A stretch of DNA of 41,374 bases, from assembly GCA_900320855.1 (NCBI GenBank), contig ONTV01000003.1, forward strand, positions 1-41,374, in the 5' to 3' direction. Of this stretch, positions 172 to 39,612 are shown one piece after another. The first letter of the stretch is position 1, and each line of letters opens with the position of its first letter. The notes under the pieces are model-generated. The model saw nothing but the letters and a program-made list of their open reading frames with translations, ran no database searches and was not told where the DNA came from. The position numbers and the translations under genes were made by a program. The stretch is from an uncultured Lentisphaerota bacterium. GTDB lineage: Bacteria; Verrucomicrobiota; Kiritimatiellia; RFP12; UBA1067.

Positions 172-1275
172 CTAGTCCGTCAACTTCCGGTACTGCTTTC
201 CATCAAAGGAGACGTCCTTGCCCGCGCAGAGCCAAGAGGTCAAGGACTTGAGCTGCCCCTCGTCAACCTGCGGATTCTTGATGGTGCCCGAAAATGGGAT
301 GCGCAATTTCTCGACATGCCCATCGGCAAAGACCACATGGGCAAAGAGGTTCTTGCCCTGCACATGGTTCGCCCCGAGTGTCTCGTTGCCCGGCGAGCGC
401 GGCACATCGCTGCCCGTCAAGTCAGACGTCGCGTACTGAAGAACGGCATCCGTCTCCTCCGTACCGGAGGTTCCATCTGGTTGCCAGGCGCTGTAGCCCA
501 TGAACGGAACTTCCGCAAACAGCAACCGCCGGTCAGCGCGCACAAAGCCGTTGAACCACTGGCCCTGCGAGCTGGTCGAAATCGCGTACGCGCGCGACCC
601 CTTGTATTCGTCCCAGCCGAAATACCCATTCATCAAATAGCTCCAGACGGGCTTTGTCCCCCGCACCCCCATCTTTTTGGCGTGACTCGGACACACGTAC
701 GTCTCGCGGTTGCCGGCGACGTACTTCCAGAGACAGCCATTTGTAAGCGCGAAAATCGACTCTTCGTCGTCGGTCGAATAGAGACTGACGCTCGCGTTGG
801 CTCGATGCGCCGAGGACACGCCATTTGGATAGCCATTACGCGAGTTCCAGCTGATCCAGCCTGGACGCTCCGTGTAGGACATTTTCGTCCTCCGCTTGCC
901 GTCCGTCTGGTCGGCCTTCACATATTCGCGCGATCCGGCCAACGGATACCGGTGGTCCTTCATGCCATAGACCTGGCAAGCGTTGGCGAGGTTCTTCATG
1001 TTCGAGAGACAGCGTGCGGCGCGCGCCGACTCGGACCCGCCGGAGAACGTCGACAGCAACACCCCGGCCAAAATGCCAATGATGGCAATGACGACCAGAA
1101 GTTCGACGAGGGTGAAGGCAGGGGAAGAAGAAATAATCGAATGGTCGAATGATCGAATGGTCGAATGAGAATGAGGGGAATCAGAAGAAATAATCGAATG
1201 GTCGAATGATCGAATGGTCGAATGAGAATGGGAGAATGGGAGAATGGGAGAATGGGGGGACATGGGAGATTTCAT
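172..1275 (-). CDS. Prepilin-type N-terminal cleavage/methylation-domain protein, DUF1559 / H-X9-DG-like, with an unusually long repeat-encoded leader
   Basis: 'PAFTLVELLVVIAIIGILAGVLL' pilin N-terminal helix. C-terminal '...NLFAHVVFADGHVEKL' resembles the H-X9-DG motif of PVC prepilin-like proteins. The ATG at 1275 abuts the stop of the upstream gene (TAAATG). Confidence 0.85.
   Translation of the reverse strand: MKSPMSPHSPILPFSHSHSTIRSFDHSIISSDSPHSHSTIRSFDHSIISSSPAFTLVELLVVIAIIGILAGVLLSTFSGGSESARAARCLSNMKNLANACQVYGMKDHRYPLAGSREYVKADQTDGKRRTKMSYTERPGWISWNSRNGYPNGVSSAHRANASVSLYSTDDEESIFALTNGCLWKYVAGNRETYVCPSHAKKMGVRGTKPVWSYLMNGYFGWDEYKGSRAYAISTSSQGQWFNGFVRADRRLLFAEVPFMGYSAWQPDGTSGTEETDAVLQYATSDLTGSDVPRSPGNETLGANHVQGKNLFAHVVFADGHVEKLRIPFSGTIKNPQVDEGQLKSLTSWLCAGKDVSFDGKQYRKLTD
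1126..1256 (-). repeat. Octamer tandem-repeat array A, (CATTCGAY)n ending ...CATTCGATTATTTCTTC, read on the minus strand; contains a 57-bp tandem duplication
   Basis: A 48-bp block at 1126..1173 recurs at 1183..1230 (57-bp period). CCATTCTC units at 1229..1256 grade into CATTCGAC/CATTCGAT units. The array lies inside the 5' coding part of the 172..1275 gene. Confidence 0.9.
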
Positions 1276-1662
1276 TTAGCTGATTTCCTTTCGCTTTTCA
1301 TGCAAACGCCGCTTGACCGACTGGAATAGGCAGACAAGCTCACTGCATTCTTTTACTAGTTGAGAATAGACGTCTTGATCCGGATAAAGCCTCCTTAGCA
1401 ACTCAAGCCAATAGAGTGATTCCGAACACTCTTTGAGAACAATCCCTATCTTGTGGTTGAAATCATCCCTTGATTCGGCTCGATTCGCCTCTCGATAGTT
1501 TGCGCCAACCGAAGAGGCCGACTTGCCAAGCTGATACGAAATAACCTTCGAAGAAACGAACGGCGGCAGGGCATCCAAGGAGCGAAAGACGGCAATGGCG
1601 AAGTCAGACGTTCGGCTCTCCAGACTTTTCTTGAACGCGAGCTTCTCCGCCACACTCCACAT
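1276..1662 (-). CDS. Four-helix-bundle protein (23S rRNA intervening-sequence protein / Avd-like family, PF05635/TIGR02436 type)
   Basis: 128 aa. '...SSVGANYREANRAESRDDFNHKIGIVLKECSESLYWLELL...' matches the family signature (..AN..EG.....DF...L.IA.GS..E....L). Strong SD AAGGGAGGG lies 4 nt before the ATG. Confidence 0.8.
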   Translation of the reverse strand: MWSVAEKLAFKKSLESRTSDFAIAVFRSLDALPPFVSSKVISYQLGKSASSVGANYREANRAESRDDFNHKIGIVLKECSESLYWLELLRRLYPDQDVYSQLVKECSELVCLFQSVKRRLHEKRKEIS

Positions 1663-1680
1663 TTCGCCCTCCCTTATTTC

Positions 1681-1800
1681 TCATTCGCCATTCCATTATT
1701 CCATTCCATTCACTATTCGACCATTCAAACATTCGATTATTCGATTATTCGATTATTTCCCATTCGATCATTCGATTATTCGATTATTCGATTATTTCCC
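1681..1800 (+). repeat. Octamer tandem-repeat array B, same family as A in plus orientation; two sub-blocks each ending CATTCGATTATTTCCC
   Basis: CATTCGATTATTCGATTATTCGATTATTTCCC at 1730..1761, and a longer version at 1761..1800. The last base abuts the stop codon of the 1800..4916 gene. Confidence 0.9.
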
Positions 1801-4800
1801 TAATCAAACTGCCGATAGAACAGGATCCGAGTCCGATGGGGGCGCGGCTGGCCCGCGCCGACATCAGTCTGCGTCTTCGCCGGGTCGCGCCACACAAGCG
1901 CAACCGCGCGCGCGCCCAGCTGCGGCGGCGTCTGCCCGATGGCTCCGCCACCCATCATCAAAGGCTCGGCTCGGACAAAAACAAGGAAGAGCTGCTGCTT
2001 CGCGGCAAACGAGTCCCGCCAGAACCCATAGAGGAACTTGCGGTCGGCATCCGTCAAGTCGCATGTCTCCCCAGACAGGGTCACACCCGCCAATTCGTCC
2101 GCGCTGTTCAGCCCCGCCCAGTCCAGCGCGTCAAACGCGGCCTTCCAGTCACCATCCGAGCGGCTGCGCACGGCACTGCGAATGTTTGCGGCGATGCTCT
2201 TGAGATCATCCCACGCAAACTTCGACGACGAATCGCCCTGCTGGTTAAAGCAGTACTTCCTGTTGAAGTCCTCGGCTTTCCGCTCGGACTCCTGAATCGC
2301 ATTCGGCCCCGTCGTGTTCGTCGAGGCGACCATCCAGTTGTACGGCGTATTGGCAAGCGCGGCCAAGACCGGCGCATCCGAATCCGCATACGGATTCACG
2401 CGGAAGCCCGTCCCCTCGCTCGTGAAGCCAACGCCTCCGAAGTCGTCGCGCGCCGCACTCGGAAGGGCAAATGGACGATAGGTGCGCCAGGCAAAGGCAT
2501 TGTTGGGCGTGGCGGAGAAATTCGCGGCAAAGTCTGTTGCACCGTTTGCAGGCGACACCATGTCGCCGCGAATCTTGTTTCCGCCCGAACTCGTGAGATC
2601 TGTCAAACGCGGCAGAAACGCCAGCTCGTAGACCGACTGGAGATACCCGGCATCGCTCGTCGCCATGAAGATGTCGCGGTCGCGCCCGTCATTCCCGCGT
2701 TGACAGTTGTCGAGCCAGCCCTGTGCGGAGAAGCCGCCGGGCATCACAAACCAATGCTCCGGTGCCCAATTCCAGCGCGGATCGGCGCACATGATTGCCG
2801 ATGTCGTAAAGCCGAAATCCGATCCCGCCGCCGTCGCCGCCGCAATCGTGGTCGGATTGTAGTCAACCGTCACCCCGCCAAAACGCAGAAGCGGATACGG
2901 CGCACCGCCAATCAAGGTTGCATCCGGCCCCATCGTCGTGAAGTTCATGCACGAATTGAGATCATCGTCGTCCCTTATGCAGGCCGGAACGAGGTCAACG
3001 TACTTTCCATTCGAATCCTTCGCGTACAGCCACACGCACATCTGCAGCCGCACGGTCTTTCCCCCGCCCTTCTCAACGAGCGCCCTGAAGTTGGCCGCCG
3101 CCGAATAGTCGGTGTCGACCAAGCCATTCGCCTTCAGTGGCGGCACAAGGCATTCGGTCGGGTCGGCGAGAACGGCCGAACTGTCCGGCTCCTCCGGCAA
3201 CCAGGGACCAAGCGTCCCCGTGATTTCGTTCTTCGTGCGCGTCTGCTTCCATTCGCGCGTCACCTTGAACATCGGGTTGTCATTCAGCCACGTGGCAACC
3301 CGGTTCGCCGCCGAGCCAAAGTTGAGCGAGATCTGCTTGACGGCATCTTCCTCCTTGTCGATGCCCGTGAACGTGAGCGACTGCTCCTGAAAGGGTACAT
3401 AGAAGACGCCATTCTGAACAGTCGCCTCCGAAAAGGCACTCGTGGCACCGAGATGCAGGACATCGTTCGCGTTATCCGTATGAAACGCCATCGCCGTATC
3501 AGAGAAGAACAGTGCGAGACGTCCGCCGATCTTGAACGTGCCGTTCACGTCATCGTCACGGCGGAAGGGAAACGTGACGAGCGTATCGACCTTTCCGCCC
3601 ATGAGTCCGTAGGAAAACATCTTCGGGTCGATGCTGTAGACGTCCGTCCGCCGAACGGTACGCTCAAGCGCCTCGTCGGGCAGATTCGGATTCGTCGGCT
3701 CGACCGTGCCCTTGCTTTCCGAGACCTTCAACTGCGATTTGCCCAGCTGCGGCTGGACGGCCGCGAACATCGGCACCCGCTCCGTCGTCGGGATCGCCAG
3801 AGACAGCGGCACGCTGTCCTCGTCAAGGTAGTCCCAAAGCGCACAGAGACCCAGGCCGCAGACGGACTCAAGAAGCCTGGTCACGCCGTCTGACGAATAG
3901 GTGAGCGCCGTCGTCATCGACCGCGTGGTCTGCAGAAGATCAGTGGCGCGGAACGGTTGCTTGTCGGTGTCGTTCAAGTCGTAGTCGGCGTCGTCGCCAC
4001 TGCCGAGGGACGAGGGGAAGTAGCTGTCGGTCACGAACGCCATGCTCCGCATCATCTCGCTGTCGGTGCCCGTGTTGCTCGTGACGAAGTCCTGTCCCCC
4101 GCGCGAGCCGACAAAGCGGCAGAAGGGGCTGACCACCTGAGACGGGCAGCCGTAGGCGCTACTGCCGCCGTAACCAATCGCGAGATTGAGGTCGGCCAGC
4201 GAGATGAGCGCCAGCTTCGCGCTGTTCGGAAGCAGATGCCCACCGTGGCGATAGGCATCGACGGCATCGACAAAATTGTCCATAAAGGCATCCCACGACG
4301 CGGGATTCACCGTGTAACCGGTATGCGCGGCGTTCTCGAACACATAGGCGAGCGAGACGCGCCCGTTGTCGGACGAATTGCGCCCGACATTTGCCGCAAT
4401 CCGGTTGACGTCAAGGTGGTCGGAAACATCCACGGCGAAGAACGCGAAACGCCCCGCGTCGAAGCCCATCGACTGCCAGCGCGCGGCGGCGCTGTGCCGC
4501 GAATAGTAGCGCGCCTCATTGATCAGTGCCGGAGGCAGGTAGGCAAGCGCCTCCAGCGTCAGGGTCGAGACGGTCTCATCCGCCGAGACGAGACGATTCG
4601 TGCCAATGAAGCAGTGGTTGCGCCAATAGTTGCGCCTCGCCAGATAGGCGCTCTCGTTCTCGGTGTCGGCGCGGGGCGAGGCATAGGTCGTCCCGTTGTC
4701 GCCCATGCCGGGGAACGGATCGTTTCCGATGGCAATGTCGATCTGGTCGATTGCCTCGGCGAGCGCGGCCTTAACGAGGTGGCGCGACGACGAGGTGCGA

Positions 4801-4916
4801 CGCAGGTAACTCGACGGCAGGCGCGAAGCGCGCATGTACGCCGAGAAGGCGACGGCCGAGATCACCATGAAGGAGACCATGCCAAGGACAATGAGAAGGG
4901 CCGAGCCGCGTTTCAT
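1800..4916 (-). CDS. Giant (1038 aa) GspK/PilX-like pseudopilin-associated protein with an N-terminal membrane anchor
   Basis: 'MKRGSALLIVLGMVSFMVISAVAF' resembles the GspK N-terminus. ATGA overlap with the upstream GspG-like gene. No other domain recognised by eye. Confidence 0.6.
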   Translation of the reverse strand: MKRGSALLIVLGMVSFMVISAVAFSAYMRASRLPSSYLRRTSSSRHLVKAALAEAIDQIDIAIGNDPFPGMGDNGTTYASPRADTENESAYLARRNYWRNHCFIGTNRLVSADETVSTLTLEALAYLPPALINEARYYSRHSAAARWQSMGFDAGRFAFFAVDVSDHLDVNRIAANVGRNSSDNGRVSLAYVFENAAHTGYTVNPASWDAFMDNFVDAVDAYRHGGHLLPNSAKLALISLADLNLAIGYGGSSAYGCPSQVVSPFCRFVGSRGGQDFVTSNTGTDSEMMRSMAFVTDSYFPSSLGSGDDADYDLNDTDKQPFRATDLLQTTRSMTTALTYSSDGVTRLLESVCGLGLCALWDYLDEDSVPLSLAIPTTERVPMFAAVQPQLGKSQLKVSESKGTVEPTNPNLPDEALERTVRRTDVYSIDPKMFSYGLMGGKVDTLVTFPFRRDDDVNGTFKIGGRLALFFSDTAMAFHTDNANDVLHLGATSAFSEATVQNGVFYVPFQEQSLTFTGIDKEEDAVKQISLNFGSAANRVATWLNDNPMFKVTREWKQTRTKNEITGTLGPWLPEEPDSSAVLADPTECLVPPLKANGLVDTDYSAAANFRALVEKGGGKTVRLQMCVWLYAKDSNGKYVDLVPACIRDDDDLNSCMNFTTMGPDATLIGGAPYPLLRFGGVTVDYNPTTIAAATAAGSDFGFTTSAIMCADPRWNWAPEHWFVMPGGFSAQGWLDNCQRGNDGRDRDIFMATSDAGYLQSVYELAFLPRLTDLTSSGGNKIRGDMVSPANGATDFAANFSATPNNAFAWRTYRPFALPSAARDDFGGVGFTSEGTGFRVNPYADSDAPVLAALANTPYNWMVASTNTTGPNAIQESERKAEDFNRKYCFNQQGDSSSKFAWDDLKSIAANIRSAVRSRSDGDWKAAFDALDWAGLNSADELAGVTLSGETCDLTDADRKFLYGFWRDSFAAKQQLFLVFVRAEPLMMGGGAIGQTPPQLGARAVALVWRDPAKTQTDVGAGQPRPHRTRILFYRQFD

Positions 4917-5392
4917 CGCTCATCCTCCGAAAGACGGTAAAAGTTCGGCAGATAGTAACCCGTGTTGAGTGCGCCTGTCGCCGTCTTGACCTTCAGCGAA
5001 ACACCCTTTGACTTGATTGTGACAAGGTACGGATGTCCCCACGGATCGAGGATCTTGCCGCCCGACGCAAGCGCCGCCTGCAGAAGGACAGGCATCTGCC
5101 CGCCGCTCTGCGGGCCGCTGCCATCGCCCAGCAGAAAGCCAAGCGTGTCCTTTCCGGCCTCGGCGCGCGTCAGCGTCGGCAACTCGTAGGTTCCGCTGCT
5201 GCCGTAATTCTCGTAGGCTAGAATCGCCTGCGAAATCACCTTGACGTCACTCGTCGCCTTCTGGACGCGCGCGCGGTGGCGCGCGGCACGGACGGACGTC
5301 GTCATCGCACCCATCAGAACGGCGATCATGCCGACCACCACCAGCAGTTCCACCAATGTGAAACCCCTTCGCCTACCATTCGCTCGGATCAT
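4913..5392 (-). CDS. GspG-like (major pseudopilin type) protein
   Basis: 'RRGFTLVELLVVVGMIAVLMG' followed by '...SDVKVISQAILAYENY...' and 'DPWGHPYLV', the classic T2SS-G pattern. Start taken at the M of MIRANGRRRGF (5392) rather than the ORF-caller start. Confidence 0.75.
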   Translation of the reverse strand: MIRANGRRRGFTLVELLVVVGMIAVLMGAMTTSVRAARHRARVQKATSDVKVISQAILAYENYGSSGTYELPTLTRAEAGKDTLGFLLGDGSGPQSGGQMPVLLQAALASGGKILDPWGHPYLVTIKSKGVSLKVKTATGALNTGYYLPNFYRLSEDER

Positions 5393-5876
5393 CTGGAAAA
5401 CTCCATATCGCCTGCCAATCGTCAACATTGTTGTTCGGCCCGCCGCTCATTACGTTGACCGTATAGTTTTGGACACGCCCCGGCGTCTGCGCATTGCCGA
5501 CGTTGATGAGACGCAAATCACTCGGCTTTAAGTTGGATGCGTTGAGCCTCGAGCGCAAGATCAGCGCCCGGTACTTGCCGCCCTCTTCGGACTTCACCCG
5601 AGATCCTGGTGCATCACACGCGCGATCACGCAAATCGCCATTCTCATCCCAAAGGCCCACCGTGCGGTAAATCTCGTTACCGTAGGCAAAGGCATTGTCG
5701 GCCTCCTCACGCAGTTCCGCCATGTTGTCGCGCACATCATCCATGTCGGAGACACCCGCAACGCCAATGCGCCAGGCGATGGATGACTGGTTGAAGATCA
5801 TGGTCAGAATCGTGACGAGCATGCCCAAGAGCATGGACGCGACGAGCAGTTCTATGATTGTAAAACCCCTTCTCAT
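5373..5876 (-). CDS. Minor pseudopilin-like protein (GspJ-like)
   Basis: 'MRRGFTIIELLVASMLLGMLVTILTMIF' N-terminal methylation motif and helix. Overlaps both neighbouring genes. Confidence 0.7.
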   Translation of the reverse strand: MRRGFTIIELLVASMLLGMLVTILTMIFNQSSIAWRIGVAGVSDMDDVRDNMAELREEADNAFAYGNEIYRTVGLWDENGDLRDRACDAPGSRVKSEEGGKYRALILRSRLNASNLKPSDLRLINVGNAQTPGRVQNYTVNVMSGGPNNNVDDWQAIWSFPDDPSEW

Positions 5877-6415
5877 TTGTCTGCAACCCCCTGAAACCTG
5901 ACTTCGGTGTAGAAGAGCGGCATACCCATGAGCTGCCCGAACATATCTGACTTGACCGCGCGGAAGGCGATCTGGACAACCGCCGAATCCGTCTCGTGCA
6001 AGACGACAAGGCCACAGCTCATGCCCGAACCGGACAACGCCGACGAGGGGAAGCTCCGATCGCCATCATAGCTGCCGTCAAAGCTTAACGCACCCATCAC
6101 CGAAGTAAATGCGCTTTGCGCCTTCGCCTGCGGATCGGTCGTCACAATGCCGTTCGAATTGAAGTAGCCCTTCCAGCCATCCTTGCCCGGATAACTGCCA
6201 AGGTTGCGGAAGCTCGTCCATGTCACATTCGTCGACGACAGGGCCATCACGAGCGGACTCATCACGCTGTCGGCAAGCGCCGTCGCGGCGACGTCCTCGC
6301 GACTCTGCCGGTTCTCACGAAATCCAAGGGCGTACAGCCCGACGACCGAGAGGATGCCACCCGCCATGATCAGCATGGCGAGATTCACCTCAATAAGCGT
6401 AAATGCCTTTCTCAT
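5873..6415 (-). CDS. Minor pseudopilin-like protein (GspI-like)
   Basis: 'MRKAFTLIEVNLAMLIMAGGILSVVGLY'. ATGA overlap with the downstream gene. Confidence 0.7.
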   Translation of the reverse strand: MRKAFTLIEVNLAMLIMAGGILSVVGLYALGFRENRQSREDVAATALADSVMSPLVMALSSTNVTWTSFRNLGSYPGKDGWKGYFNSNGIVTTDPQAKAQSAFTSVMGALSFDGSYDGDRSFPSSALSGSGMSCGLVVLHETDSAVVQIAFRAVKSDMFGQLMGMPLFYTEVRFQGVADK

Positions 6416-6416
6416 G

Positions 6417-7349
6417 TTAGTTCAAGTCCTTCGTCGGGTCTGAGCTCTGTCCAACCGACCGCGCAACCAGATTGCCGCTCGCATCGGGGCGAAGCGAATA
6501 GACGGTAACCGCCGTGCGCGTGCCCAACCCGGACGAGCCCGAAACACCATTGCCCTGGTTCAAGCCCACATTGAATGTCATCGTCCCCGCCGGACGAATC
6601 GGGTCTGCCACGTCCGTCGCATAGGACGAACCGAAAATGTACCCATGTGGCAATTCGAGACGCGCGAATTCAAAGCCATAGGCCATACCGGCCTGCCAAG
6701 TCACGCCACCCGCATCTTCGACCTTGAAGGCATAGACCTTGAGCGCGCCCTGCGTCTCGCCCGACGGCACGTCAGACAGTTTCGTGCCATTGGCATCCAA
6801 CGCGGTCAGGACGCCGTTCTCGCCCGACAGGTAGAGCGGCGTCAATTCCTTGCCATAGACCTTCTGATCGACAATCGAGCGCTTAAGCTGCGTCGTGTCC
6901 TCGATGTCCGAGAGACGGTCGATCGGATAGAGGTACATCGTGTTTTTCCGGCTATCGCCGCCGCCTTCGCCCGCCGAGGCACTGCCGGATGTCGAGTCGT
7001 CCGTCTGGTACGAGAGATTGAGATCTGCGAACTCGTCGTAGAGGTACTGCCCGTCGGCCCGCGTGATGCGCCCCTGACGGCGAATCGCAACCGCTTTGCC
7101 GACGACAATCTCGGTGCGATCATCGTCCGCAGCACGAAGCGTCTCGTTCCAAAAGTAGATGGCTGTCGGTTGCCGGTCGATCTGCGCGCGCTGGTAGGCC
7201 GCGCGCACAAGCGCATTGACATTGTCCAGGACGCCGCGTTCGGCCATGCCGCGTTGCATCGCCCGGTAACCGCCAACCGACACCGTACCGAGAAGGCCCA
7301 TGATGCCGATCACAACGAGCAGCTCAATCAGTGTGAACGCCTTTTTCAT
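6417..7349 (-). CDS. Prepilin-type protein (GspH/FimT-like)
   Basis: 'MKKAFTLIELLVVIGIMGLLGTVSVGGYRAMQRG'. Start set at the ATG at 7349; the ORF-caller extension to 7481 overlaps the upstream gene. Confidence 0.7.
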   Translation of the reverse strand: MKKAFTLIELLVVIGIMGLLGTVSVGGYRAMQRGMAERGVLDNVNALVRAAYQRAQIDRQPTAIYFWNETLRAADDDRTEIVVGKAVAIRRQGRITRADGQYLYDEFADLNLSYQTDDSTSGSASAGEGGGDSRKNTMYLYPIDRLSDIEDTTQLKRSIVDQKVYGKELTPLYLSGENGVLTALDANGTKLSDVPSGETQGALKVYAFKVEDAGGVTWQAGMAYGFEFARLELPHGYIFGSSYATDVADPIRPAGTMTFNVGLNQGNGVSGSSGLGTRTAVTVYSLRPDASGNLVARSVGQSSDPTKDLN

Positions 7350-7353
7350 GGCC

Positions 7354-7926
7354 TTAGTTGTTCCCCTTGTAGTCGTCACGCCAGCCGACACGCAGCTGAT
7401 CGGTTGCGATTGAATAGCCCATGCCAAAGCGCACGAACCTGCCATTCGACGCATGCGGATAGCCGAAGTACATCTCGGCAAGTTTCATCTTCTTGGACGA
7501 CTTGCGCGTACCCCGAATGGCGCTCATAAAATCCATGCCTGCGCCACGTCCACCGGATGTATCGCCATCCGACCGCGAGACCCAAAGCCCCGAGACGTCG
7601 ATGAGGGGATTGCCCTCCTTCGCCGACTCGACGATCTTTCGCACGCATTCGCGCACCTCGTTCGCCGTGAGGTCATACTGGTTCTCGTCGATGTCGTCTG
7701 AACCCTTCTTATGGTTGCCGACCTTTCCCTTGAAGCTGATCGGCCACTCGTCGTTCTGCGCATAGTACGCCGCGAGGCCCGACTGAACCAAGGAGACGAG
7801 AGCCTCGGCGCGACGCGTTCGTGACGCTTTCATCGATTCGGACGCAGCCGTCGTCACGATACCCATCAGGATCGCAATGACCCCAATGACCATCAGAAGT
7901 TCAACAATGGTAAATCCCCTCTTCAT
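7354..7926 (-). CDS. Prepilin-type N-terminal cleavage/methylation-domain protein
   Basis: 'MKRGFTIVELLMVIGVIAILMG'. The ATG at 7926 overlaps the TGA of the upstream gene by 1 nt (TGATG). Confidence 0.75.
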   Translation of the reverse strand: MKRGFTIVELLMVIGVIAILMGIVTTAASESMKASRTRRAEALVSLVQSGLAAYYAQNDEWPISFKGKVGNHKKGSDDIDENQYDLTANEVRECVRKIVESAKEGNPLIDVSGLWVSRSDGDTSGGRGAGMDFMSAIRGTRKSSKKMKLAEMYFGYPHASNGRFVRFGMGYSIATDQLRVGWRDDYKGNN

Positions 7927-8666
7927 CACTTTACCTGCTGTGTCTGTCCGAAAGTCCACGAATAGACGTCGTCCGCCCGACGGCCCTTCGAATACGGCCA
8001 AGGCTGACCCTTGTTGCCGCCCGACTTGCCAATGCACCAGACAATCGCCGTCGCTCGGACGTCCACCCCCTCGCCACCCACGCTCGCGCCCTTGATGATG
8101 CCATCGCCGTCAAGGTCAAGCGCGTAGTGGAGGATATGATCCTTGACAGTCGTCGAGCCAAAAACCTTGTCGGAAAGCGTTGCGGCCGATCCCTTGCGCT
8201 TGATCGCCGCCGTCGCCCACGGCGTAACGACGCCGAAGCGGTCAAGGCCAGCGAGTTTGCCGTTCTCTGTCGTGAGCGACAGGTACTTCGTCGTTCCCGC
8301 GACGAGCGCGTAGGCCGTCTCGGCGTCCAGTTCGCCGTCCGACGTGCCATTTCGCGCAAGCCGTCGCGGCCAGGCCCCCTCCTGCTGAAAGAGCGCCGTG
8401 AGCGCCGTCGCGACATTCGAGACGAGTTCCTGCGCCTTGGCCTTCTCGGCGGACTTTGTCATCTGCGCGAAACCGCCAATTGACGCGCCAACCAGCACCG
8501 CAATGATACCGACGACAACGAGCATCTCAATGAGGGTAAAGGCTGGGCGAGAAGAAATAATCGAATGCTTGAATAATCGAATGGTCGAATGAGAATTCGT
8601 CGAATAATCGAATGTTCGGTCGTTCGAATGTGCATCCGAGTTCTGAATCTTGTTCGTCTTTTTCAT
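7926..8666 (-). CDS. Prepilin-type protein with a long repeat-encoded leader
   Basis: 'RPAFTLIEMLVVVGIIAVLVG' has no nearby canonical start. The best start is the ATG at 8666, preceded by GGAGGA plus 4 nt. The leader 'MKKTNKIQNSDAHSNDRTFDYSTNSHSTIRLFKHSIISS' is encoded by array C. An alternative start is at 8696. Confidence 0.7.
   Translation of the reverse strand: MKKTNKIQNSDAHSNDRTFDYSTNSHSTIRLFKHSIISSRPAFTLIEMLVVVGIIAVLVGASIGGFAQMTKSAEKAKAQELVSNVATALTALFQQEGAWPRRLARNGTSDGELDAETAYALVAGTTKYLSLTTENGKLAGLDRFGVVTPWATAAIKRKGSAATLSDKVFGSTTVKDHILHYALDLDGDGIIKGASVGGEGVDVRATAIVWCIGKSGGNKGQPWPYSKGRRADDVYSWTFGQTQQVK
8549..8630 (-). repeat. Octamer tandem-repeat array C (minus orientation), ending CATTCGATTATTTCTTCTC
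   Basis: The minus strand reads ACATTCGAACGACCGAACATTCGATTATTCGACGAATTCTCATTCGACCATTCGATTATTCAAGCATTCGATTATTTCTTC. Confidence 0.85.
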
Positions 8667-8689
8667 CAATTCCTCCATATTCTCTCGCT

Positions 8690-8820
8690 TATTCAATTAT
8701 TGATCATTCCCATTCGATTTATTCAAACATTCGATTATTCGATCATTCGACCATTCGATTATTTCCCATCTCCCATTCCCCATTCGATCATTCAAACATT
8801 CGATTATTCGATCATTTCTC
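8690..8820 (+). repeat. Octamer tandem-repeat array D (plus orientation), ending CATTCGATTATTCGATCATTTCTC at the stop codon of the 8819..9994 gene
   Basis: CATTCGATT/CATTCGATC/CATTCGACC units with interspersed CCCAT(C/T)TCCC units. Divergent with respect to array C. Confidence 0.85.
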
Positions 8821-9994
8821 AATGACTCATATTCACGACATCGTCTTCCGTCCAGTAGGCAGCACCTGCCGCCGCATTGGCATCTAGCGACTCACGCGAA
8901 ACCCACGGCGGGAAGGTCTTCCCGTTCGGGCCCGCCGACCACAGCACATACGATTGGTAAGGAGCCGGCGAATAGTAGTAAAAGTCGTTCTGCCATCCAT
9001 CGACGACCGTGACGCCATCCAGAATGTACTGACCAGAGGTCGAGTCGTTTGCGTAGCCTCCGGGAGAATAGATTTCCGTCTCTGTCGAAACAATCGGCCC
9101 TCCTGCGTCCTGCGACTCCGGATCGCGGATGTCAACCCCATAGAACGTCGTGGGGTGACCATATCGGCAGATCCCCTCCAGATTTGGTAGCCACCGCGCA
9201 CAGACAGATTGGGATGGAATATTCGCCACATGGGCCAAGTCGGATGGCGTTTCGCTATTGGCATAGTTTTGTACGCTCTGCCAATTGGCAAACCGCCTCC
9301 CCGACAAGGGGTCACACGGCAGGGTGTTGTTGTCAAGCCACTGCTCATGATCACGGAAGAGAGACGACTCCGAGTCCATCATCACGAGATAGCGCGGCAG
9401 AAGAAAGCTCATCAGACCGAATTGGAAAATCTGCACTTCGCGCCAATCGCTCTCGTTGTTGTAGGCGCTCAACCCCGTCACCTCAACGGAGAAGCCGCCG
9501 CCGTATTTGTTTTTCTGGTTCTCGCTGAGACCGCTGGCATTAGATTCTTGGACAAGCAAGTCAGAAGTTGCCTGCGCCCACTGCCGCCAGTTGGCGTCTT
9601 GCGGGAAGGGGAACTTACAGGCTAACGGCTGGGCTCGACAGGCGGCCTGAACCTGCTCCCAGTCATCCGCTTCGTCCTGCGAATTGTTCACCGAATGACT
9701 GCTACGGTCGAACCAACTCCACTTCAAGTCTTGCTCATCGTCTACGCTCTGGATGCCGTGACCAGAGACCTTGAGCCGATAATTGCGGCTCCCTTGTAGA
9801 CGGACGGGCGGATAGGAGCCGAATGCCGCATAGTAGCCAGAAAGACAGTTTTCAAGTTTCTGCAGCCGCGCAACCGTCGTCGTCCGAGCCGACTGGCTTG
9901 AACCGATTGACGACAGGCGGAACGTCATCGTCATCAGCGTGACGAGCACGACGACGACAACCAGCAGTTCGACGAGTGTGAAACCTTTTTTCAT
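8819..9994 (-). CDS. Large GspG-family prepilin-like protein (391 aa), first gene of the pseudopilin operon
   Basis: 'MKKGFTLVELLVVVVVLVTLMTM' and C-terminal 'DGWQNDFYYYSPAPYQSYVLWSAGPNGK' (the T2SS-G 'DPWGxPY...S.G.DG' pattern). Start set at the ATG at 9994. Confidence 0.75.
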   Translation of the reverse strand: MKKGFTLVELLVVVVVLVTLMTMTFRLSSIGSSQSARTTTVARLQKLENCLSGYYAAFGSYPPVRLQGSRNYRLKVSGHGIQSVDDEQDLKWSWFDRSSHSVNNSQDEADDWEQVQAACRAQPLACKFPFPQDANWRQWAQATSDLLVQESNASGLSENQKNKYGGGFSVEVTGLSAYNNESDWREVQIFQFGLMSFLLPRYLVMMDSESSLFRDHEQWLDNNTLPCDPLSGRRFANWQSVQNYANSETPSDLAHVANIPSQSVCARWLPNLEGICRYGHPTTFYGVDIRDPESQDAGGPIVSTETEIYSPGGYANDSTSGQYILDGVTVVDGWQNDFYYYSPAPYQSYVLWSAGPNGKTFPPWVSRESLDANAAAGAAYWTEDDVVNMSH

Positions 9995-10003
9995 TCTTCG
10001 CGC

Positions 10004-10012
10004 ATTATACCA
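10004..10012 (-). promoter_or_regulatory. Extended -10 (TGGTATAAT) for the pseudopilin operon, 9 nt upstream of the ATG at 9994
   Basis: Reverse complement of 10004..10012 is TGGTATAAT. Confidence 0.5.
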
Positions 10013-10046
10013 CATCCCCCCAAATCCCCGCAAGCACCCCACGAAA

Positions 10047-10167
10047 AAATGAGAATTCAATGCGGAATTCTTTTTCGGCTGCCCCCGCGTGCTGCTACCA
10101 CTCCCGCCTCGCCTGCGTCTGTCACCACGTTGGCTTTTGCCACAAAGAACACACGCGCGCTTCGCGC
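10047..10167 (+). repeat. 121-bp dispersed repeat, copy 1
   Basis: 116 of 121 positions identical to 11182..11302. Contains the hairpin AGAATTC-AATGCG-GAATTCT followed by TTTT. Confidence 0.9.
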
Positions 10168-10373
10168 GCCACAAAAGAGAACGGAGACAAGAAGTAGAGA
10201 GAAAAGAGCAGGGGGGTAAGGTGTAAGGAGAAATTGACCACCACACTTACTCCCTCCTACTTTCTCCTTGCTCCTTCCTCCTTCTTGCTCCTTCTCGTCG
10301 AGAACGGGGCGAAGCGCTTTCGTGTTTCGACGAGCGGCTTGGACGCTTTCGTGTCCCGCGCCAGCGGGCTTTC

Positions 10374-10421
10374 GTGAACGGCGCACCGCGCCGTTTCGTG
10401 TCCGCGCGAAGCGCCAGCCCC
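10374..10421 (+). repeat. 48-bp REP-like unit, copy 1 (hairpin AACGGCGC-ACC-GCGCCGTT followed by TCGTGTCCGCGCGAAGCGCC)
   Basis: 45 of 48 positions identical to 24232..24279. Confidence 0.9.
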
Positions 10422-10422
10422 C

Positions 10423-10451
10423 TTGACAAATTCGCAATTCGCGAATACAAT
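10423..10451 (+). promoter_or_regulatory. Near-consensus sigma70 promoter, TTGACA-17-TACAAT, with the palindrome ATTCGCGAAT in the spacer
   Basis: TTGACA at 10423..10428 and TACAAT at 10446..10451. The ATG at 10459 is 7 nt downstream, so the mRNA may be leaderless. Confidence 0.65.
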
Positions 10452-10458
10452 ACACGCC

Positions 10459-10959
10459 ATGATCAAAGGACAAGATCTCGTCGTTCTGTCCGTTCTCATG
10501 GAGAACGGTGCGGACAAGTTCGCCTACGCGGAACTTGGCCAACTCGCGCACGTCAGCGCTTCTGAAGCGCACGCCGCCGTCCGACGGCTGAAGGAATCCG
10601 TCCTGCTCAACGAGGGACGCCGACCCATTCGGCGAAACGTCTGCGAATTCTTCGTCCACGGCTTGCGCTATTCGTTCCCGATGCGCCCTTCCGGGAAGCG
10701 CACAAGGGGAATTCCGACGTCATATGCGGCGCCTGTCGCGACCGATGCGTTCGCCGCGACAGGCCTTCTGCCCGTCTGGGAATGCCCAAACGGAACTGTC
10801 TTCGGACAAGCGGTCGAACCCGTCTACCACACGGCCCCCGAAGCGGCCAGAGGAAACCGAGGCGTCTACGATCGACTGGCGCTAATCGACATGCTGCGCG
10901 GCGGCCGCACGCGCGAGCGGCTGTTTGCCGAACATAAACTGGAGGAAATCCTGTCATGA
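10459..10959 (+). CDS. Small winged-helix (MarR-like N-terminus) DNA-binding protein, function unknown
   Basis: 'DLVVLSVLMENGADKFAYAELGQLAHVSASEAHAAVRRLKESVLL' looks like a wHTH. The C-terminal ~100 aa are not recognised. The ORF-caller start at 10423 is the TTG of the -35 hexamer. Confidence 0.6.
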   Translation: MIKGQDLVVLSVLMENGADKFAYAELGQLAHVSASEAHAAVRRLKESVLLNEGRRPIRRNVCEFFVHGLRYSFPMRPSGKRTRGIPTSYAAPVATDAFAATGLLPVWECPNGTVFGQAVEPVYHTAPEAARGNRGVYDRLALIDMLRGGRTRERLFAEHKLEEILS

Positions 10960-10986
10960 CGACAGTCGAGACGGCCATTCTAACCC

Positions 10987-11181: not shown

Positions 11182-11302
11182 AAATGAGAATTCAATGCGG
11201 AATTCTTTTTCGGCTGTCCCCGCATTCTGCTACCACTCTCGCCTCGCCTGCGTCTGTCACCTCGTTGGCTTTTGCCACAAAGAACACACGCGCGCTTCGC
11301 GC
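11182..11302 (+). repeat. 121-bp dispersed repeat, copy 2
   Basis: See 10047..10167. Same orientation, 5 mismatches. Confidence 0.9.
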
Positions 11303-11419
11303 ACCAAGCCTCTGCCACTTGGCGTCCGATGGCCGCGACAAAGGATTGGAAACACAGAATCTTTCCCCCAAACCCAGAACCATCTCTACGCCCTCGCGCG
11401 ACATCATCGCGCGAGGGCC

Positions 11420-16960: not shown

Positions 16961-17002
16961 ATAACCTGTGTATATTTTTTGTTCACAATCCTGTTGAGAA
17001 TG

Positions 17003-17011
17003 TGCTATAAT
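17003..17011 (+). promoter_or_regulatory. Extended -10 (TGCTATAAT) for mnmG, 6 nt upstream of the ATG at 17018; possible -35 TTCACA at 16982..16987
   Basis: Read directly from the sequence. Confidence 0.55.
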
Positions 17012-17017
17012 GAGGCC

Positions 17018-19219
17018 ATGAAACTGAAGGATGCCTTTGAGGTTCTTGTCGTGGGCGGTGGCCATGCCGGCGTCGAGGCGGCGCTTGCCGCCGCGCGCAT
17101 GATGGCCCGTACCTTGCTCGTCACGACCCGTCGTGACGCGATTGCTCGTATGCCCTGCAATCCGTCAATTGGCGGTCTCGCCAAAAGTCACCTGGTCTGC
17201 GAACTGGATGCCCTCGGCGGCGAAATGGGCGTGAATGCCGACCAGACGGCCCTTCAGGCAAAGACGCTCAACTTTAGCCGCGGCCCTGCCGTCTGGGCGA
17301 CGCGCTGCCAATGCGCCAAGGCGGAATACGCCGCGCGAATGCAAGCCGTCGTCTCCGCACAGGACAACCTAACTGTCCTTGAGGATGCCGTTGTCGGCAT
17401 TTTCACGGACGCTTCGCGGCACGTCATGGGCGTCCAGACCGAAAACAATGGTCTCATTCGCGCCGCGACCGTCATTCTGACAACGGGGACAACGCTTCGT
17501 GGACGCGTCTGGATTGGCGACAAAAGCCAAGAAAGCGGCGGAGATGGACGCCCTGCCGTGAATCTTCTTTCAAAAAGTCTTGCGAATCTCGGATTTGAAT
17601 TGATCCGGCTTAAAACCGGTACGCCTCCACGACTCAAGGCCTCGACCTGCGACTTTTCGCGTTGCATTCGACAGGATGGTGATACTCCACGACCTTTGTT
17701 CCACGTGGAACAACAAAGCAAATTTCAGATTTCAAATTTCAAAAGTCTGTTCCACGTGGAACAAAATTCGTTTGTCGCTCGTGGCCAACATAATTCGTCA
17801 ATAGCCTGTGGTGCCCCGTCGTTCAATTGTGTTCAACAGAAAAATTCGTCGACTAGATGTGTTCCACATGGAACAATAAAACCAAACAGCAATCAAGAGA
17901 TATGTTCCACGTGGAACAATGAAGTTAATCGGTTAGACGTGTTCCACGTGGAACAAAATTCGTCATCCAATCGTGCTCGTCAAAATTTGTCATTCTTCTG
18001 TGTTCAAAAGCAAAGTTTGTCGAATAACCCTGTTTTGAATGAACGATCCGATGTTTTGACTGCGCCAAATTCGTCATGCTCAAGTAACCAGCCCGAAAAT
18101 TCACACCAACAACCGTGTTCCACGTGGAACAATCTGCTGACAGGTCTACCAAGTCTGCCTTGTTGGATGACGCAGACAAATCCAAAAACACACGAAATCA
18201 TTCGTGCAAATCTCGACAAGTCATCTCTCTATGGCGGCAAAATCATCGGAACCGGCGTTCGCTACTGTCCAAGCATCGAAGACAAGATCGTTCGCTTCGC
18301 GACAGTCGAACATCACCATGTCATTCTCGAACCGGAAGACAGCCTGGGCGAAGTCATCTATCCGAATGGACTGAGTTGCTCGCTTCCCGAAAACGTTCAG
18401 CGCGAAATGGTCCACTCGGTGGCGGGACTCGAAGAGGCCGAGTTCTTGGCCTACGCCTATGCCATTGAATATGACAGCATTGATGCGCGTGAACTCCGCC
18501 ATACGCTTGAGTCAAAGCGCATTTCGGGGCTCTACTTTGCTGGACAGATCAATGGAACGACCGGATACGAGGAAGCCGCTGGACAAGGCATTCTCGCCGG
18601 AATCAACGCCGCCTTCGCTGTCCGAAAGGCGCAGCCGTTTATTTTGAGTCGACAAGATGCCTATCTCGGCGTGATGATTGACGATCTTGTCACAAAGGGA
18701 ACAGACGAACCCTATCGCATGTTTACAAGCCGCGCCGAGCGACGCCTGATTCTACGGCAGGACAATGCCCGCTATCGCCTCTTGTCGGCCGCCAAGCGCG
18801 TCGGCATTTTGTCTGATGAAATCATCGCGGCCCGCGAAGCGGAATGGGCCATCATCCAAGTAAAGCTTGCCGATCTCACAAAGAAGAAGGGGAGAGTCGT
18901 TCAGTCCGAAACCGAGAAACTTGACTCTCCTGACATGACAACGGCGCAAGGACGAATTGATCGTGAAGTAATGATTATGCACCATTACGCCCCCTACATT
19001 GCGCAAGAAGAAAAAGCCGCCGCGCAAGCCAGGAAGGACGAGGCGCTCGCCATTCCCCGTTGGCTTGACTATGACAAATGCACAGGCGTCCGCTACGAGA
19101 GCCGTGAAAAGCTGAAGAAGTACCGTCCAGAGACACTGGCGCAAGCCAGCCGCATTCCCGGCGTCAACCCCGCCGACATTGCCGTCCTCGCCGTTCTGAT
19201 CAAACGCGGTCATGTCTAA
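17018..19219 (+). CDS. mnmG: tRNA uridine 5-carboxymethylaminomethyl modification enzyme MnmG (GidA), carrying an internal insertion of about 145 aa
   Basis: '[20 protein letters not shown]', 'RLKTGTPPR', '[15 protein letters not shown]' and '[18 protein letters not shown]'. 733 aa, against about 620-630 aa for typical MnmG. Start set at the ATG at 17018. Confidence 0.95.
17697..17712. other. parS: parS-like site 1, TGTTCCACGTGGAACA (perfect 16-bp palindrome)
   Basis: Matches the parS consensus tGTTnCACGTGnAACa. Confidence 0.75.
17748..17763. other. parS: parS-like site 2, TGTTCCACGTGGAACA
   Basis: Exact repeat of site 1. Immediately followed by AAAATTCGT. Confidence 0.75.
17860..17875. other. 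parS: parS-like site 3, TGTTCCACATGGAACA (one central mismatch)
   Basis: 15 of 16 positions match sites 1, 2, 4, 5 and 6. Confidence 0.6.
17903..17918. other. parS: parS-like site 4, TGTTCCACGTGGAACA
   Basis: Exact repeat. Confidence 0.75.
17940..17955. other. parS: parS-like site 5, TGTTCCACGTGGAACA
   Basis: Exact repeat. Immediately followed by AAAATTCGTC. Confidence 0.75.
18116..18131. other. parS: parS-like site 6, TGTTCCACGTGGAACA
   Basis: Exact repeat. Confidence 0.75.
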
Positions 19220-19370
19220 CGTGCAGGCGCATTTTGTGTCCTCTGTGGCATAAGAACAATATATCCATTCGAATCTAACGCCACATTTACGCTTCCACCG
19301 GATAGCACAAATCTGAATGAATAGGATTTAAAATTCGTGTAATCTTTGAAAATTCGTGGACATATTCTAG

Positions 19371-19393
19371 TTATAAACATTAAATGTTGATAA
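19371..19393. promoter_or_regulatory. 23-bp near-perfect palindrome TTATAAACATT-A-AATGTTGATAA upstream of dnaA; the arms are DnaA-box-like TTAT(A/C)AACA
   Basis: The 11-bp arms differ at 1 position. The right arm contains the 9-mer TGTTGATAA, which also occurs at 16839 and 24531, and as its reverse complement at 24466. Confidence 0.45.
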
Positions 19394-19441
19394 CTTGAAG
19401 ACATAAGTTGATTTCTCGTTGCGCATTTCGTGCCCATTTTA

Positions 19442-19450
19442 TGGTATTAT
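19442..19450 (+). promoter_or_regulatory. Extended -10 (TGGTATTAT) for dnaA, with a 28-nt A-rich leader and no obvious SD
   Basis: Read directly from the sequence. Confidence 0.5.
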
Positions 19451-19478
19451 GTAGGACTTTACGAGTAGTAGACAAAAA

Positions 19479-20903
19479 ATGAGCGAAACGATCGACATCA
19501 AGTCAAAGGAGACGTGGGAAAGGGCGAAGCAAATCTACCTTTCCACGTTATCGTCCGCCGCCGAGCGCGGGCAGGTCGAGCGCTATTTGGAGACGATTAC
19601 GTCCGTCATGCACGAAAACGGTGTCTTCGTCATCTTTGTCACGAACGACTACTCGGCCAGTTTCCTGCGCGACAAGTATTCGGACAAGCTGAAGAAGTGT
19701 CTTGAACTCGTTTCGTCGGAGGGGAAGGTCGACATCGAGTTCCGCACCAGCGAACGCGCAAAGCCGGCAATCGTCGTCCCGTCTGAACCGCCGCCGGTCG
19801 CGGCATCGGTCTCCCCGCCGCGCGCGCACGCCAAGGCGCCGCCGCTTGCCTCGACCATGCCCCTCAACGAAGAGTACACGTTCGACAATTTCGTGAGCGG
19901 CAAGTCGAACAGCTGGGCGCTCGCTGCCGCACAGGGCGTCGTCTCCAATCCCGGCAAGAGCGGCTACAACCCGCTCTTCATTCATGGCGGCACGGGCCTC
20001 GGCAAGACGCACCTCATGCAGGCAATCGGCAACGAGCTCAAGAAGAAGAACCCCGCGCTGAACATCTGCTATCTCACGGCCGAGACGTTCCTGAACGAAT
20101 ACGTGAACGCTCTGCAGAACGGTAACCTCGAAAGCTTCCGCAAGCGCTACCGCAAGATGGACTTGCTGATGGTCGATGACGTGCAGTTCCTTCAGAAGGG
20201 CAGACAGTTCCAGGAGGAGTTCTTCAACACGTTCAACGCCCTCCAGCAGGCGCAGCGCCAGATCGTCATGACGTCCGACGTCGCTCCGAAGAACCTGCCG
20301 TCCATCGAGACACGCCTCATCTCGCGCTTCGAGGGCGGCATGGTGCAGGAGATCGAGTCACCCAACTACGAGACGCGCCTCGCGATTCTGAAGAAGAAGT
20401 CCGAGGCGATGGTGCCGTCCATCCCCGACAACGCGCTTGAGTTCATCGCCGACACGATCAAGAGCCACGTGCGCGCGATGGAAGGCGCGTTGAACCGCGT
20501 CCGCATCTTCCGCATGGTCGAATCGACGACGCCACTCACGAATGACGTACTGACGCACATGCTCCGCGACTACATCGAGAAGGAGAAGTCGCTCCGCAGC
20601 CTGACCGTCGAGGAAATCCAGCAGTCCGTCGCGAAGAGGTTCCACGTCTCGATTGACCAGATCCTCTCCGCTGAACGGACGCAGTCGCTCGTCACCCCGC
20701 GCCAGATGGCCATGTACATCTCGCGCAAGTACACGACGAGGAGCCTCCCGGAAATCGCGCAGTCGTTCGGCAAGACGCACGCCACGATTCTCCACGGCGT
20801 CAAGAACATCGAAAAACGGCTCGACGTCGAGCCCGACCTCAAGTCGATTCTCAATGAAGTGCTGAACGAATTCGGCTGTTCGCTCAAGGACAACCTCGAT
20901 TGA
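19479..20903 (+). CDS. dnaA: Chromosomal replication initiator protein DnaA
   Basis: 'NPLFIHGGTGLGKTHLMQAIG' (Walker A), 'LLMVDDVQFL' (Walker B) and domain IV '...RQMAMYISRKYTTRSLPEIAQSFGKTHATILHGVKNIEK'. Confidence 0.97.
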   Translation: MSETIDIKSKETWERAKQIYLSTLSSAAERGQVERYLETITSVMHENGVFVIFVTNDYSASFLRDKYSDKLKKCLELVSSEGKVDIEFRTSERAKPAIVVPSEPPPVAASVSPPRAHAKAPPLASTMPLNEEYTFDNFVSGKSNSWALAAAQGVVSNPGKSGYNPLFIHGGTGLGKTHLMQAIGNELKKKNPALNICYLTAETFLNEYVNALQNGNLESFRKRYRKMDLLMVDDVQFLQKGRQFQEEFFNTFNALQQAQRQIVMTSDVAPKNLPSIETRLISRFEGGMVQEIESPNYETRLAILKKKSEAMVPSIPDNALEFIADTIKSHVRAMEGALNRVRIFRMVESTTPLTNDVLTHMLRDYIEKEKSLRSLTVEEIQQSVAKRFHVSIDQILSAERTQSLVTPRQMAMYISRKYTTRSLPEIAQSFGKTHATILHGVKNIEKRLDVEPDLKSILNEVLNEFGCSLKDNLD

Positions 20904-24407: not shown

Positions 24408-24461
24408 CTCCACCCTCCCACTCTCCCACCCTCCCACCCTCCCACTCTCCCACCTTTTCCC
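24408..24461 (+). repeat. C-rich octamer array (CTCCCACY)n ending TTTTCCC; G-quadruplex-prone on the minus strand
   Basis: CTCCACCCTCCCACTCTCCCACCCTCCCACCCTCCCACTCTCCCACCTTTTCCC. The complement contains GGGAGGGTGGGAGGGTGGG. Confidence 0.8.
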
Positions 24462-24465
24462 AAAC

Positions 24466-38277: not shown

Positions 38278-39612
<1,335 letters not shown>

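Follow-up and report, generated by a model that had tools for sequence, protein, structure and literature searches.

A four-helix-bundle gene between inverted octamer-repeat arrays in a bacterial pseudopilin operon: a candidate messenger RNA counterpart of 23S rRNA intervening sequences

What is a gene of the protein family of 23S rRNA intervening sequences (IVSs) doing within a pseudopilin operon, and why is it bracketed by arrays of 8-nucleotide (nt) repeats? The question is raised by a stretch of 41,374 nt from an uncultured Lentisphaerota bacterium (assembly GCA_900320855.1, contig ONTV01000003.1), the whole of which we call the window. The family in question consists of small four-helix-bundle (4HB) proteins; their genes are scattered through operons of many phyla and their function has, to our knowledge, been an open question since the early 1990s. 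A preliminary description of the window, made without database searches, had proposed that an IVS-like module, composed of a stem and an open reading frame (ORF), was inserted here in an mRNA. The reading that we favour, with moderate confidence, is close to it: an IVS-type hairpin cassette in a polycistronic mRNA, with a functional 4HB gene in the loop and arms made of inverted arrays of 8-nt repeats. The cassette and its two neighbours comprise the following features, given in the order of transcription.

1800..4916, minus strand: upstream gene of the operon, 1038 amino acids (aa), GspK-like by its N-terminus (MKRGSALLIVLGMVSFMV)
1681..1799, minus strand: array B, 5′ arm of the predicted hairpin in the minus-strand transcript, reading GGGAAATAATCGAATAATCGAATG..., with TAA or TGA in all three frames
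1667..1673, minus strand: Shine-Dalgarno (SD)-like GGGAGGG, 4 nt 5′ of the 4HB start codon, from reading of the sequence
1276..1662, minus strand: 4HB gene, 128 aa, PF05635/TIGR02436, in the predicted hairpin loop, identified from profiles, an AlphaFold2 model and orthologues
1273..1275, minus strand: ATG of the downstream ORF, adjoining the 4HB TAA (TAAATG), a candidate site of termination-reinitiation coupling
1126..1256, minus strand: array A, 3′ arm of the predicted hairpin, reading ...CATTCGACCATTCGATTATTTC, open in all frames and lying in frame within the prepilin ORF
172..1275, minus strand: last of the operon's prepilin-type genes, 367 aa by the length of the ORF, with the N_methyl motif at residues 53-74

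The ORF at 1276-1662 had been taken for an IVS-family four-helix bundle, and this identification was confirmed by scores above the curated cut-offs of both PF05635 (53 bits; cut-off 33.8) and TIGR02436 (73.3 bits; cut-off 24) and by the AlphaFold2 model, which agrees with the family fold in having four helices (mean confidence score, pLDDT, 95.8). The closest solved structures retrieved with Foldseek are 2RLD (TM-score 0.71-0.86) and 2GSC, Avd being more distant; 2RLD is also matched by phmmer at 2.3e-14. The family motif R-x3-S-x3-N-x2-E (PMC3936711) takes here the form K47-x3-S51-x3-N55-x2-E58, with K replacing R; in 42 homologues S51 and E58 never vary, and K47 and N55 are kept in at least 90%. 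Comparison with orthologues gave a dN of 0.23-0.31 and a saturated dS, with a dN/dS ratio of about 0.07-0.2; judging by these values, the 4HB protein is under purifying selection.

The two arrays belong, as the preliminary description had claimed, to one repeat family that is inverted around the ORF. Tandem Repeats Finder reported a period of 8 in both (1137-1224/1224-1269 and 1690-1796), and two 42-nt arms, at 1130-1171 and 1757-1798, show 88% complementarity. Array A is composed of two identical 48-nt blocks at a spacing of 57 nt and array B of two measuring about 31-39 nt; all blocks end in CATTCGATTATTTC. The motif CATTCGAYYATTCGA, a dimer of the unit in which one mismatch was allowed, is present in 22 copies in the window, when 0.02 would be expected by chance. 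In the minimum free energy fold of the minus-strand RNA of 1100-1810, the arrays are paired and the 4HB ORF is looped out; the energy of this structure is -256.5 kcal/mol, compared with -202.6 +/- 6.5 kcal/mol for shuffled sequences (z = -8.2), and an array-array stem of this kind is what had been expected. The claims made for the outer boundaries were also found to be correct, since array B directly adjoins the TAG stop codon (1800-1802) of the upstream 1038-aa gene and array A ends 9 nt from the PAFTLVELL codons. The cassette occupies the space from the upstream gene's stop to the mature N-terminus of the last prepilin, and array B varies in length among strains, the spacer between the stop codon and the 4HB ATG ranging from 90 to 154 nt. 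The description needs revision on two points: array A, while indeed near PAFTLVELL, lies inside the ORF 172-1275 and so is not intergenic, and the label ‘GspK-like’, to which the N-terminal motif of the upstream protein lends support, receives none from Pfam or NCBIfam, where this protein has no match. Other species have, in this operon, orthologues of the 1038-aa gene at 30-40% identity.

An independent transcription unit is unsupported, because a consensus scan of 1100-1810 gave no terminator-like site and, as the only promoter-like site, one weak match on the non-transcribed strand. An Rfam scan of the whole window returned only a tRNA, at 40964-41042, and no known RNA family at the cassette. 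The cassette is located between two protein-coding genes and not in a helix of 23S rRNA (25 or 45), as a 23S IVS would be, and blastn with the E. coli 16S and 23S sequences revealed no rRNA in the window or in any of the 200 loci fetched for comparison (referred to below by L numbers). A CRISPR array was considered and rejected, since the repeats recur every 8 nt without spacers and cas genes are absent nearby. Chance or an assembly artefact was ruled out as well, the cassette being present in 68 contig-index blocks from many independent metagenome assemblies; the exact 128-aa protein is encoded in all 68, each time at the junction seen in the window.

What does the position of array A inside a gene imply for the protein made? 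Array A encodes one stretch of 14 residues twice, in the prepilin frame, and accounts for most of the predicted leader of the last prepilin, which is 53 residues long; the first pseudopilin of the operon has a normal leader of 4 residues (MKKG/FTLVELL). Read in the CATTCGA orientation an array is stop-free in every frame, and no frame of the opposite orientation is free of TAA or TGA. In the window and in 10 strain variants (11 of 11), no stop interrupts the frame leading from the ATG to the mature N-terminus, and the length differences among these window-type variants, due to the 57-nt block and to TCTTCC runs, are all multiples of 3. The same frame is also open in L108/L036, L111, L113 (at both junctions), L117, L201 and L204, as well as at a second site of the window presented below, and in these open-frame relatives the ATG either adjoins the 4HB stop (TAAATG) or shares bases with it (ATGA). 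An extended N-terminus is found for the GspK-like gene of L113, for which there is no start codon but this ATG. The arm is left untranslated where the downstream gene has its own ATG past the array, as for pta, the ABC permease and dnaJ. On these sequence grounds, array A is probably translated as part of the prepilin leader. As a separate observation, L117 has four successive array blocks at 3249-3456, with ends CATTTCCCC or CATTTCTC, towards the 5′ end of a prepilin-type ORF of 232 aa.

Is the arrangement restricted to this operon? Most homologues are on contigs of less than 2 kb, but every close homologue (55-70% identity) that could be inspected on its contig is bracketed by short-period arrays. 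The junction is the same as in the window in L108/L036, L111, L201 and L204, where the units are CGAATAAT, CCGAATTA and TTGCGAAT. The 4HB cassette is placed upstream of the GspK-like gene in L113, before a different pseudopilin in L117, between ackA and pta in L118, and between an ABC ATPase and its permease in L202; L115 has two 4HB copies, near DUF218 and a weak Y1_Tnp match. The units vary by locus (CGAATAAT, CCGAATTA, CCGAATAA, TCGAATGT, TCGATTTT, GATTGTTC, TTGCGAAT and the heptamer TAGTGCC), with a CGA(A/T)T core common to those of the Kiritimatiellota clade. The dominant units on the two sides of the gene are reverse complements of each other in 12 loci out of 12, and the duplexes formed by cognate flanks have a mean energy of -106 kcal/mol versus -62 for non-cognate ones. 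The preliminary description had suggested checking whether other 4HB genes are flanked by the same arrays; in all twelve loci they have short-period inverted arrays, but the units are not the same.

More distant relatives were collected by a metagenome scan, which gave 583 of them, from soil, sediment and other sources; 80 loci (39-57% identity) were kept. Flanks that are mutually reverse-complementary (z >= 6) were found for 36 of the 66 distant 4HB genes with enough flanking sequence (55%) and for none of 77 controls drawn at random from the same contigs (Mann-Whitney p = 3e-12 for flank complementarity). These flanks are again tandem arrays, of period 7, 8 or 9, and their units are unrelated, e.g. 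AGTTTGG/CCAAACT, AGTACTTGG/CTAAGTACT, GTTCTAAA/TTTAGAAC and GAAAGTA/TACTTTC. The literature that was searched gave no account of 4HB genes lying between inverted tandem arrays anywhere but in rRNA, which is no proof that there is none; 4HB genes have been noted between cas genes, without explanation (PMC3936711).

How such a cassette would operate may be sketched as follows. It would be co-transcribed with the operon, and its arms are predicted to pair in the RNA. The 4HB gene would be translated from its own GGGAGGG site; ribosomes ending at the 4HB TAA could then restart at the adjoining ATG, read array A and make a prepilin with a long leader, which prepilin peptidase would cut off. Through this removal of the leader, the insertion would spare the host gene. 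That one arm stops every frame, while its partner stops none and is read into a leader that is probably cleaved, suggests how a host could tolerate the element. As is the case for 23S IVSs and Correia elements, the stem may be a substrate for RNase III, whose cleavage would separate the cistrons or tune their stability.

Likeness to 23S IVSs goes beyond the family of the protein. In Leptospira, Coxiella and Xanthomonas, a PF05635 ORF is likewise found in the loop of a long stem of terminal inverted repeats (PMC4990558), and it has the same orientation as the host gene, just as the 4HB ORF has that of the operon with which it is presumably co-transcribed. In the Coxiella IVS, RNase III cleaves a terminal stem of 28 bp, and the S23p ORF is closely preceded by tandem GACAGAT heptamers, two or three depending on the strain (PMC4990558); short tandem repeats by the ORF, variable among strains, are also present here, as octamers. 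There are also differences. The host transcript is a protein-coding operon, arrays of about 120-130 nt take the place of a stem of 28 bp, the 3′ arm seems to be read as part of the next protein, and purifying selection acts on the ORF, which has a strong SD, in contrast to the decaying ORF of Coxiella; cleavage of the element by RNase III would here be expected by analogy. It may be that 23S IVSs are one example of a broader class of elements, for the most part undescribed.

Arrays of the same family are also present without a 4HB gene. In the window these are the following.

8711..8816, minus strand: 5′ arm of a second site, between the stop of the pseudopilin gene 8819-9994 and the ribosome-binding site (RBS) of the next prepilin, with no 4HB gene
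8549..8630, minus strand: 3′ arm of the second site, in frame in the leader part of the prepilin gene 7926-8666 (MKKTNKIQNSDAHSNDRTFDYSTNSHSTIRLFKHSIISSRPAFTLIEML)
38296..38391, plus strand: third site, a single array in the spacer from the grpE stop (38277) to the dnaJ ATG (38401), ending in CATTCGATTATTTCCC

The loop of the second site, of about 80 nt, contains only GGAGGAA, an ATG (8664-8666) and 11 codons, the SD and ATG spanning 8664-8676; its fold has a z of -5.5, and the leader counts 42 residues to the predicted A/F cleavage site. At the third site the array ends 10 nt before the dnaJ ATG, and no SD is evident there.

To what extent is the array family tied to the gene? A search of GTDB genomes for three consecutive units gave at least 97 loci, and at least 139 arrays were counted, in 98 sequences. 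The matches listed, to which the counts in this paragraph apply, are mostly from metagenome-assembled genomes (MAGs) of gut Kiritimatiellota: CAKTZA, a contig of which is 91-95% identical to the window, CAKTZI, CAKUGW, UBA1629, RUG13365 and one MAG labelled ‘Lentisphaeraceae’. Among them, 56 of 86 outer array ends (...CGATTATTTC) adjoin the stop codon of a gene, as against 12% of random positions, and at array-gene boundaries the sense strand reads a stop codon followed by GAAATAATCGAATG. This stop-codon class alone was used, since array ends at start codons form an unreliable class in high-GC DNA, where 40% of random positions are positive. Neighbouring arrays are oriented (-,+) in 21 cases and (+,-) in one, so that the GAAAT ends of paired arrays face outward, and the spacers of such pairs are mostly 20-135 nt long. 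The ORF-less arrays of a contig use the unit specific to that genome, and most members of the family are in non-coding spacers. That ORF-less pairs are recent deletion derivatives was ruled out by tblastn and hidden Markov model (HMM) searches, which found no 4HB remnants in the spacers. Most arrays have no 4HB gene; the array family is therefore independent of the ORF in cis. It behaves like a family of miniature mobile hairpin elements, mostly ORF-less, situated at gene boundaries, forming outward pairs and sometimes coding in frame.

The age of the cassette is a distinct matter. At the window's junction the cassette is common to species between which the 4HB protein is only about 66% identical, hence it is not a recent insertion at this place. 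Evidence for mobility comes from other comparisons. The site occupied by the cassette in L113, between a pseudopilin and the GspK-like gene, has overlapping stop and start codons and no arrays in the window, L108 and L117, and the GspK-like/prepilin junction of L113 contains only an ORF-less pair, which encloses the SD sequence and ATG; the window and L113 thus provide reciprocal empty sites. In L001/L002, which are at the chromosomal locus of the window (the flank at 10387-10983 is 98.8% identical in nt), the operon allele encodes a GspK-like protein 34% identical to that of the window and a last prepilin that is unrecognisable, yet inside this divergent allele the 4HB ORF of L001 is identical to that of the window at 385 of 387 nt (99.5%). 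A further example is provided by L024, a CAKTZI MAG, where an array pair (866-1020) is inserted in frame inside coaE, the gene of dephospho-CoA kinase; it adds about 52 residues (78-129) and splits the Pfam CoaE match between profile positions of roughly 95 and 109. One unit is CGAATTAT in place of CGAATAAT, a change that removes an in-frame TAA. Mobility is supported by the differing insertion positions, the reciprocal empty sites and the island of 99.5% identity. Altogether the sequences indicate that the cassette was inherited vertically at the junction of the window and that such cassettes also move, or are exchanged, between loci. It may be added that the entire pseudopilin operon is present at one chromosomal locus as very divergent alleles (172-10246 in the window, 1426-11545 in L001), which resemble what would be expected of a hypervariable surface-structure locus.

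Several observations weigh against an IVS-type cassette as the explanation. With a profile built from 120 homologues, a 4HB gene was found next to just 5 of the at least 139 arrays: four of the five are around the window gene and its L036 orthologue, and the fifth is beside an unrelated 4HB gene in L045. The preliminary description had counted it as refuting if other copies of the arrays never associated with 4HB genes, and this is largely what is seen: such a gene is present at only 2 of the at least 97 loci (L036 and L045), and nearly all other copies are without one. About 70% of the arrays, among the matches listed and at the detection threshold used, are single and not paired, and for 45% of the distant 4HB genes no significant complementarity of the flanks was seen within 200 nt. 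Ribosomes reading the 3′ arm would open the stem, so that processing and translation may compete. The frame to AFTLVELL is lost in L110, which in the downstream array (at about 4400-4445) is one 8-nt unit shorter than L108/L036; this shift of one unit between near-identical contigs may be due to phase variation or to an assembly error. The cassette is old, its orthologues being about 66% identical and at the same place, and the 4HB protein could have a host function in the operon. Lastly, no target-site duplication or cognate transposase was identified, although no systematic search was made and the ORFs of the window, among which none transposase-like was noticed, were scanned in part. On balance, the proposal of an IVS-like stem-plus-ORF module in an mRNA stands as regards its anatomy and its recurrence, in 12 of 12 close loci and for 55% of distant genes; it has to be amended in that the arms come from dispersed, mostly ORF-less repeats, the 3′ arm is probably coding and the cassette is old at its junction.

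Alternatively, the hairpins could be regulatory rather than selfish: they would serve a control internal to the operon, by presenting the RBS or start codon in the loop, by stabilising the mRNA or by attenuating transcription, and the 4HB protein would be a genuine, vertically inherited component of the pseudopilin system whose gene is by chance inside one of these hairpins. Such a role would agree with the precise location of the arrays at stop and start codons, with ORF-less pairs (the second site of the window, L113) that enclose exactly the prepilin SD and ATG, with the conservation of the junction in species with about 66% identical 4HB proteins and with purifying selection on the protein. 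Against it are the presence of close homologues with the same flanks in unrelated operons (ackA-pta, the ABC transporter, near DUF218), the recurrence of the same design, made of unrelated units, around distant homologues in other phyla, the array pair that interrupts the coding sequence of coaE and the island of 99.5% identity in an operon allele whose neighbouring protein is only 34% identical. We regard this explanation as unlikely. A still lower probability, such that we would be surprised to see it confirmed, is given to the arrays being a phase-variation switch, in which slippage of the leader-coding 8-nt repeats toggles surface pseudopilins by frameshift and the 4HB gene is incidental. 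It is true that the length of the unit, 8 nt, cannot be divided by 3, that the array is between the ATG and the mature N-terminus, that its copy number differs among strains, that the pseudopilin operon is hypervariable among them and that L110 differs from L108/L036 by exactly one unit, with loss of frame. However, all 11 window-type variants are in frame and differ by multiples of 3, not by single units, most arrays of the family are in non-coding spacers, and the lone out-of-frame case could be an error in assembling a repeat.

Another possibility is a partnership like that of REPINs and RAYTs, where the single-copy 4HB protein acts in trans to bind, protect or propagate the array hairpins, as DNA or as RNA, its gene being flanked by its own substrate. 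We consider it rather unlikely, but it is compatible with an IVS-type cassette and both can be true. There are one or two 4HB genes for dozens of arrays per genome; paired arrays are strictly oriented outward; the unit common to the 4HB flanks and the ORF-less arrays is genome-specific; the Kiritimatiellota units have all retained a CGA(A/T)T core; and structural relatives of the protein include Avd, a part of the ribonucleoprotein of diversity-generating retroelements (DGRs). What argues against this partnership is that the 4HB fold is without a known nuclease or recombinase motif and that the most conserved residues are invariant even though the units differ completely, which speaks against recognition of the unit by sequence. 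In REPIN/RAYT systems as well (PMC3116915, PMC3337134), a single-copy gene is situated between inverted copies of a repeat that is genome-specific and scattered many times between genes, for the most part as inverted pairs that closely follow a gene; unlike there, the flanked gene of the window encodes a four-helix bundle with no HUH/Y1 transposase domain and the repeats are tandem units of 7-9 nt instead of imperfect palindromes of 20-30 nt. The kinship with Avd, the accessory protein of DGRs, is one of fold superfamily (Foldseek hits 4DWL and 8UB7, TM about 0.6-0.7), sequence identity being only about 10-13%. A DGR was nevertheless rejected for this locus, since no reverse-transcriptase family is named in the gene lists of the contigs with close homologues; template/variable repeat pairs were not searched for.

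Among miniature repeats, the closest parallels to the ORF-less arrays are the Rickettsia palindromic elements and the Correia elements of Neisseria, which form hairpins and are co-transcribed with their neighbours; Correia elements are also targets of RNase III, which binds or cuts them (PMC10969869; PMC2649163). Rickettsia elements are, in addition, translated in frame within coding sequences, as seems to be the case for array A, the coaE insertion of L024 and the extended N-terminus of the GspK-like protein of L113. In contrast to both, the arms here are tandem octamers, some copies carry a protein gene, and neither a fixed core sequence nor a target-site duplication was recognised, duplications not having been searched for systematically.

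If the 4HB gene is habitually enclosed in a hairpin, then IVSs, ‘orphan’ 4HB genes and a dispersed repeat family would come under one scheme. Going further, we may only speculate that PF05635 genes mark, across many phyla, a single widespread class of hairpin cassettes in mRNAs and rRNAs, of which the 23S IVSs would be a special case; that the ORF-less arms are a new miniature mobile element, inserting at stop and start codons and in frame; and that the 4HB protein is their trans-acting partner, as RAYT is for REPINs, with PDDEXK_3 perhaps as an alternative cargo. This generalisation is tentative and we hold it to be possible, with the odds against it. There are also practical consequences for annotation, as the arrays give artificially long N-termini, break assemblies and can sit in essential genes.

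The PDDEXK_3 case was met in L111 (5717-6535), where a gene of this family (PF13366) lies between inverted 9-nt arrays, CCTTCCAAA / GGGAGGTTT, accompanied by a nested hairpin and a third array; it suggests that cassettes of this type house other small cargo genes as well. In L201 (4419-4935), a second 4HB gene, bAvd-like and of 104 aa, is bracketed by the heptamer arrays TAGTGCC / GCACTAA and is placed directly after a prepilin gene and upstream of a HicA toxin gene. The two 4HB genes of L115 (3300-6400 and 7269-8321) have different units, and one of them has direct, not inverted, arrays; the weak Y1_Tnp gene of this locus adjoins the cassettes, and there is a duplicated element of about 150 nt.

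Elsewhere in the window, two near-identical GC-rich hairpins about 1.1 kb apart, at 10151-10169 and 11286-11304 on the minus strand, are each followed by GTGTTCTTTG; they are terminator-like and flank the promoter region of the pseudopilin operon on either side. Further along, at 16979-20903, gidA (mnmG) adjoins dnaA with an AT-rich spacer of 260 nt, and a CCACCCTC repeat at 24410-24454 is followed by an AT-rich stretch (24455-24520) containing words that resemble DnaA boxes. The window is probably near a replication origin.

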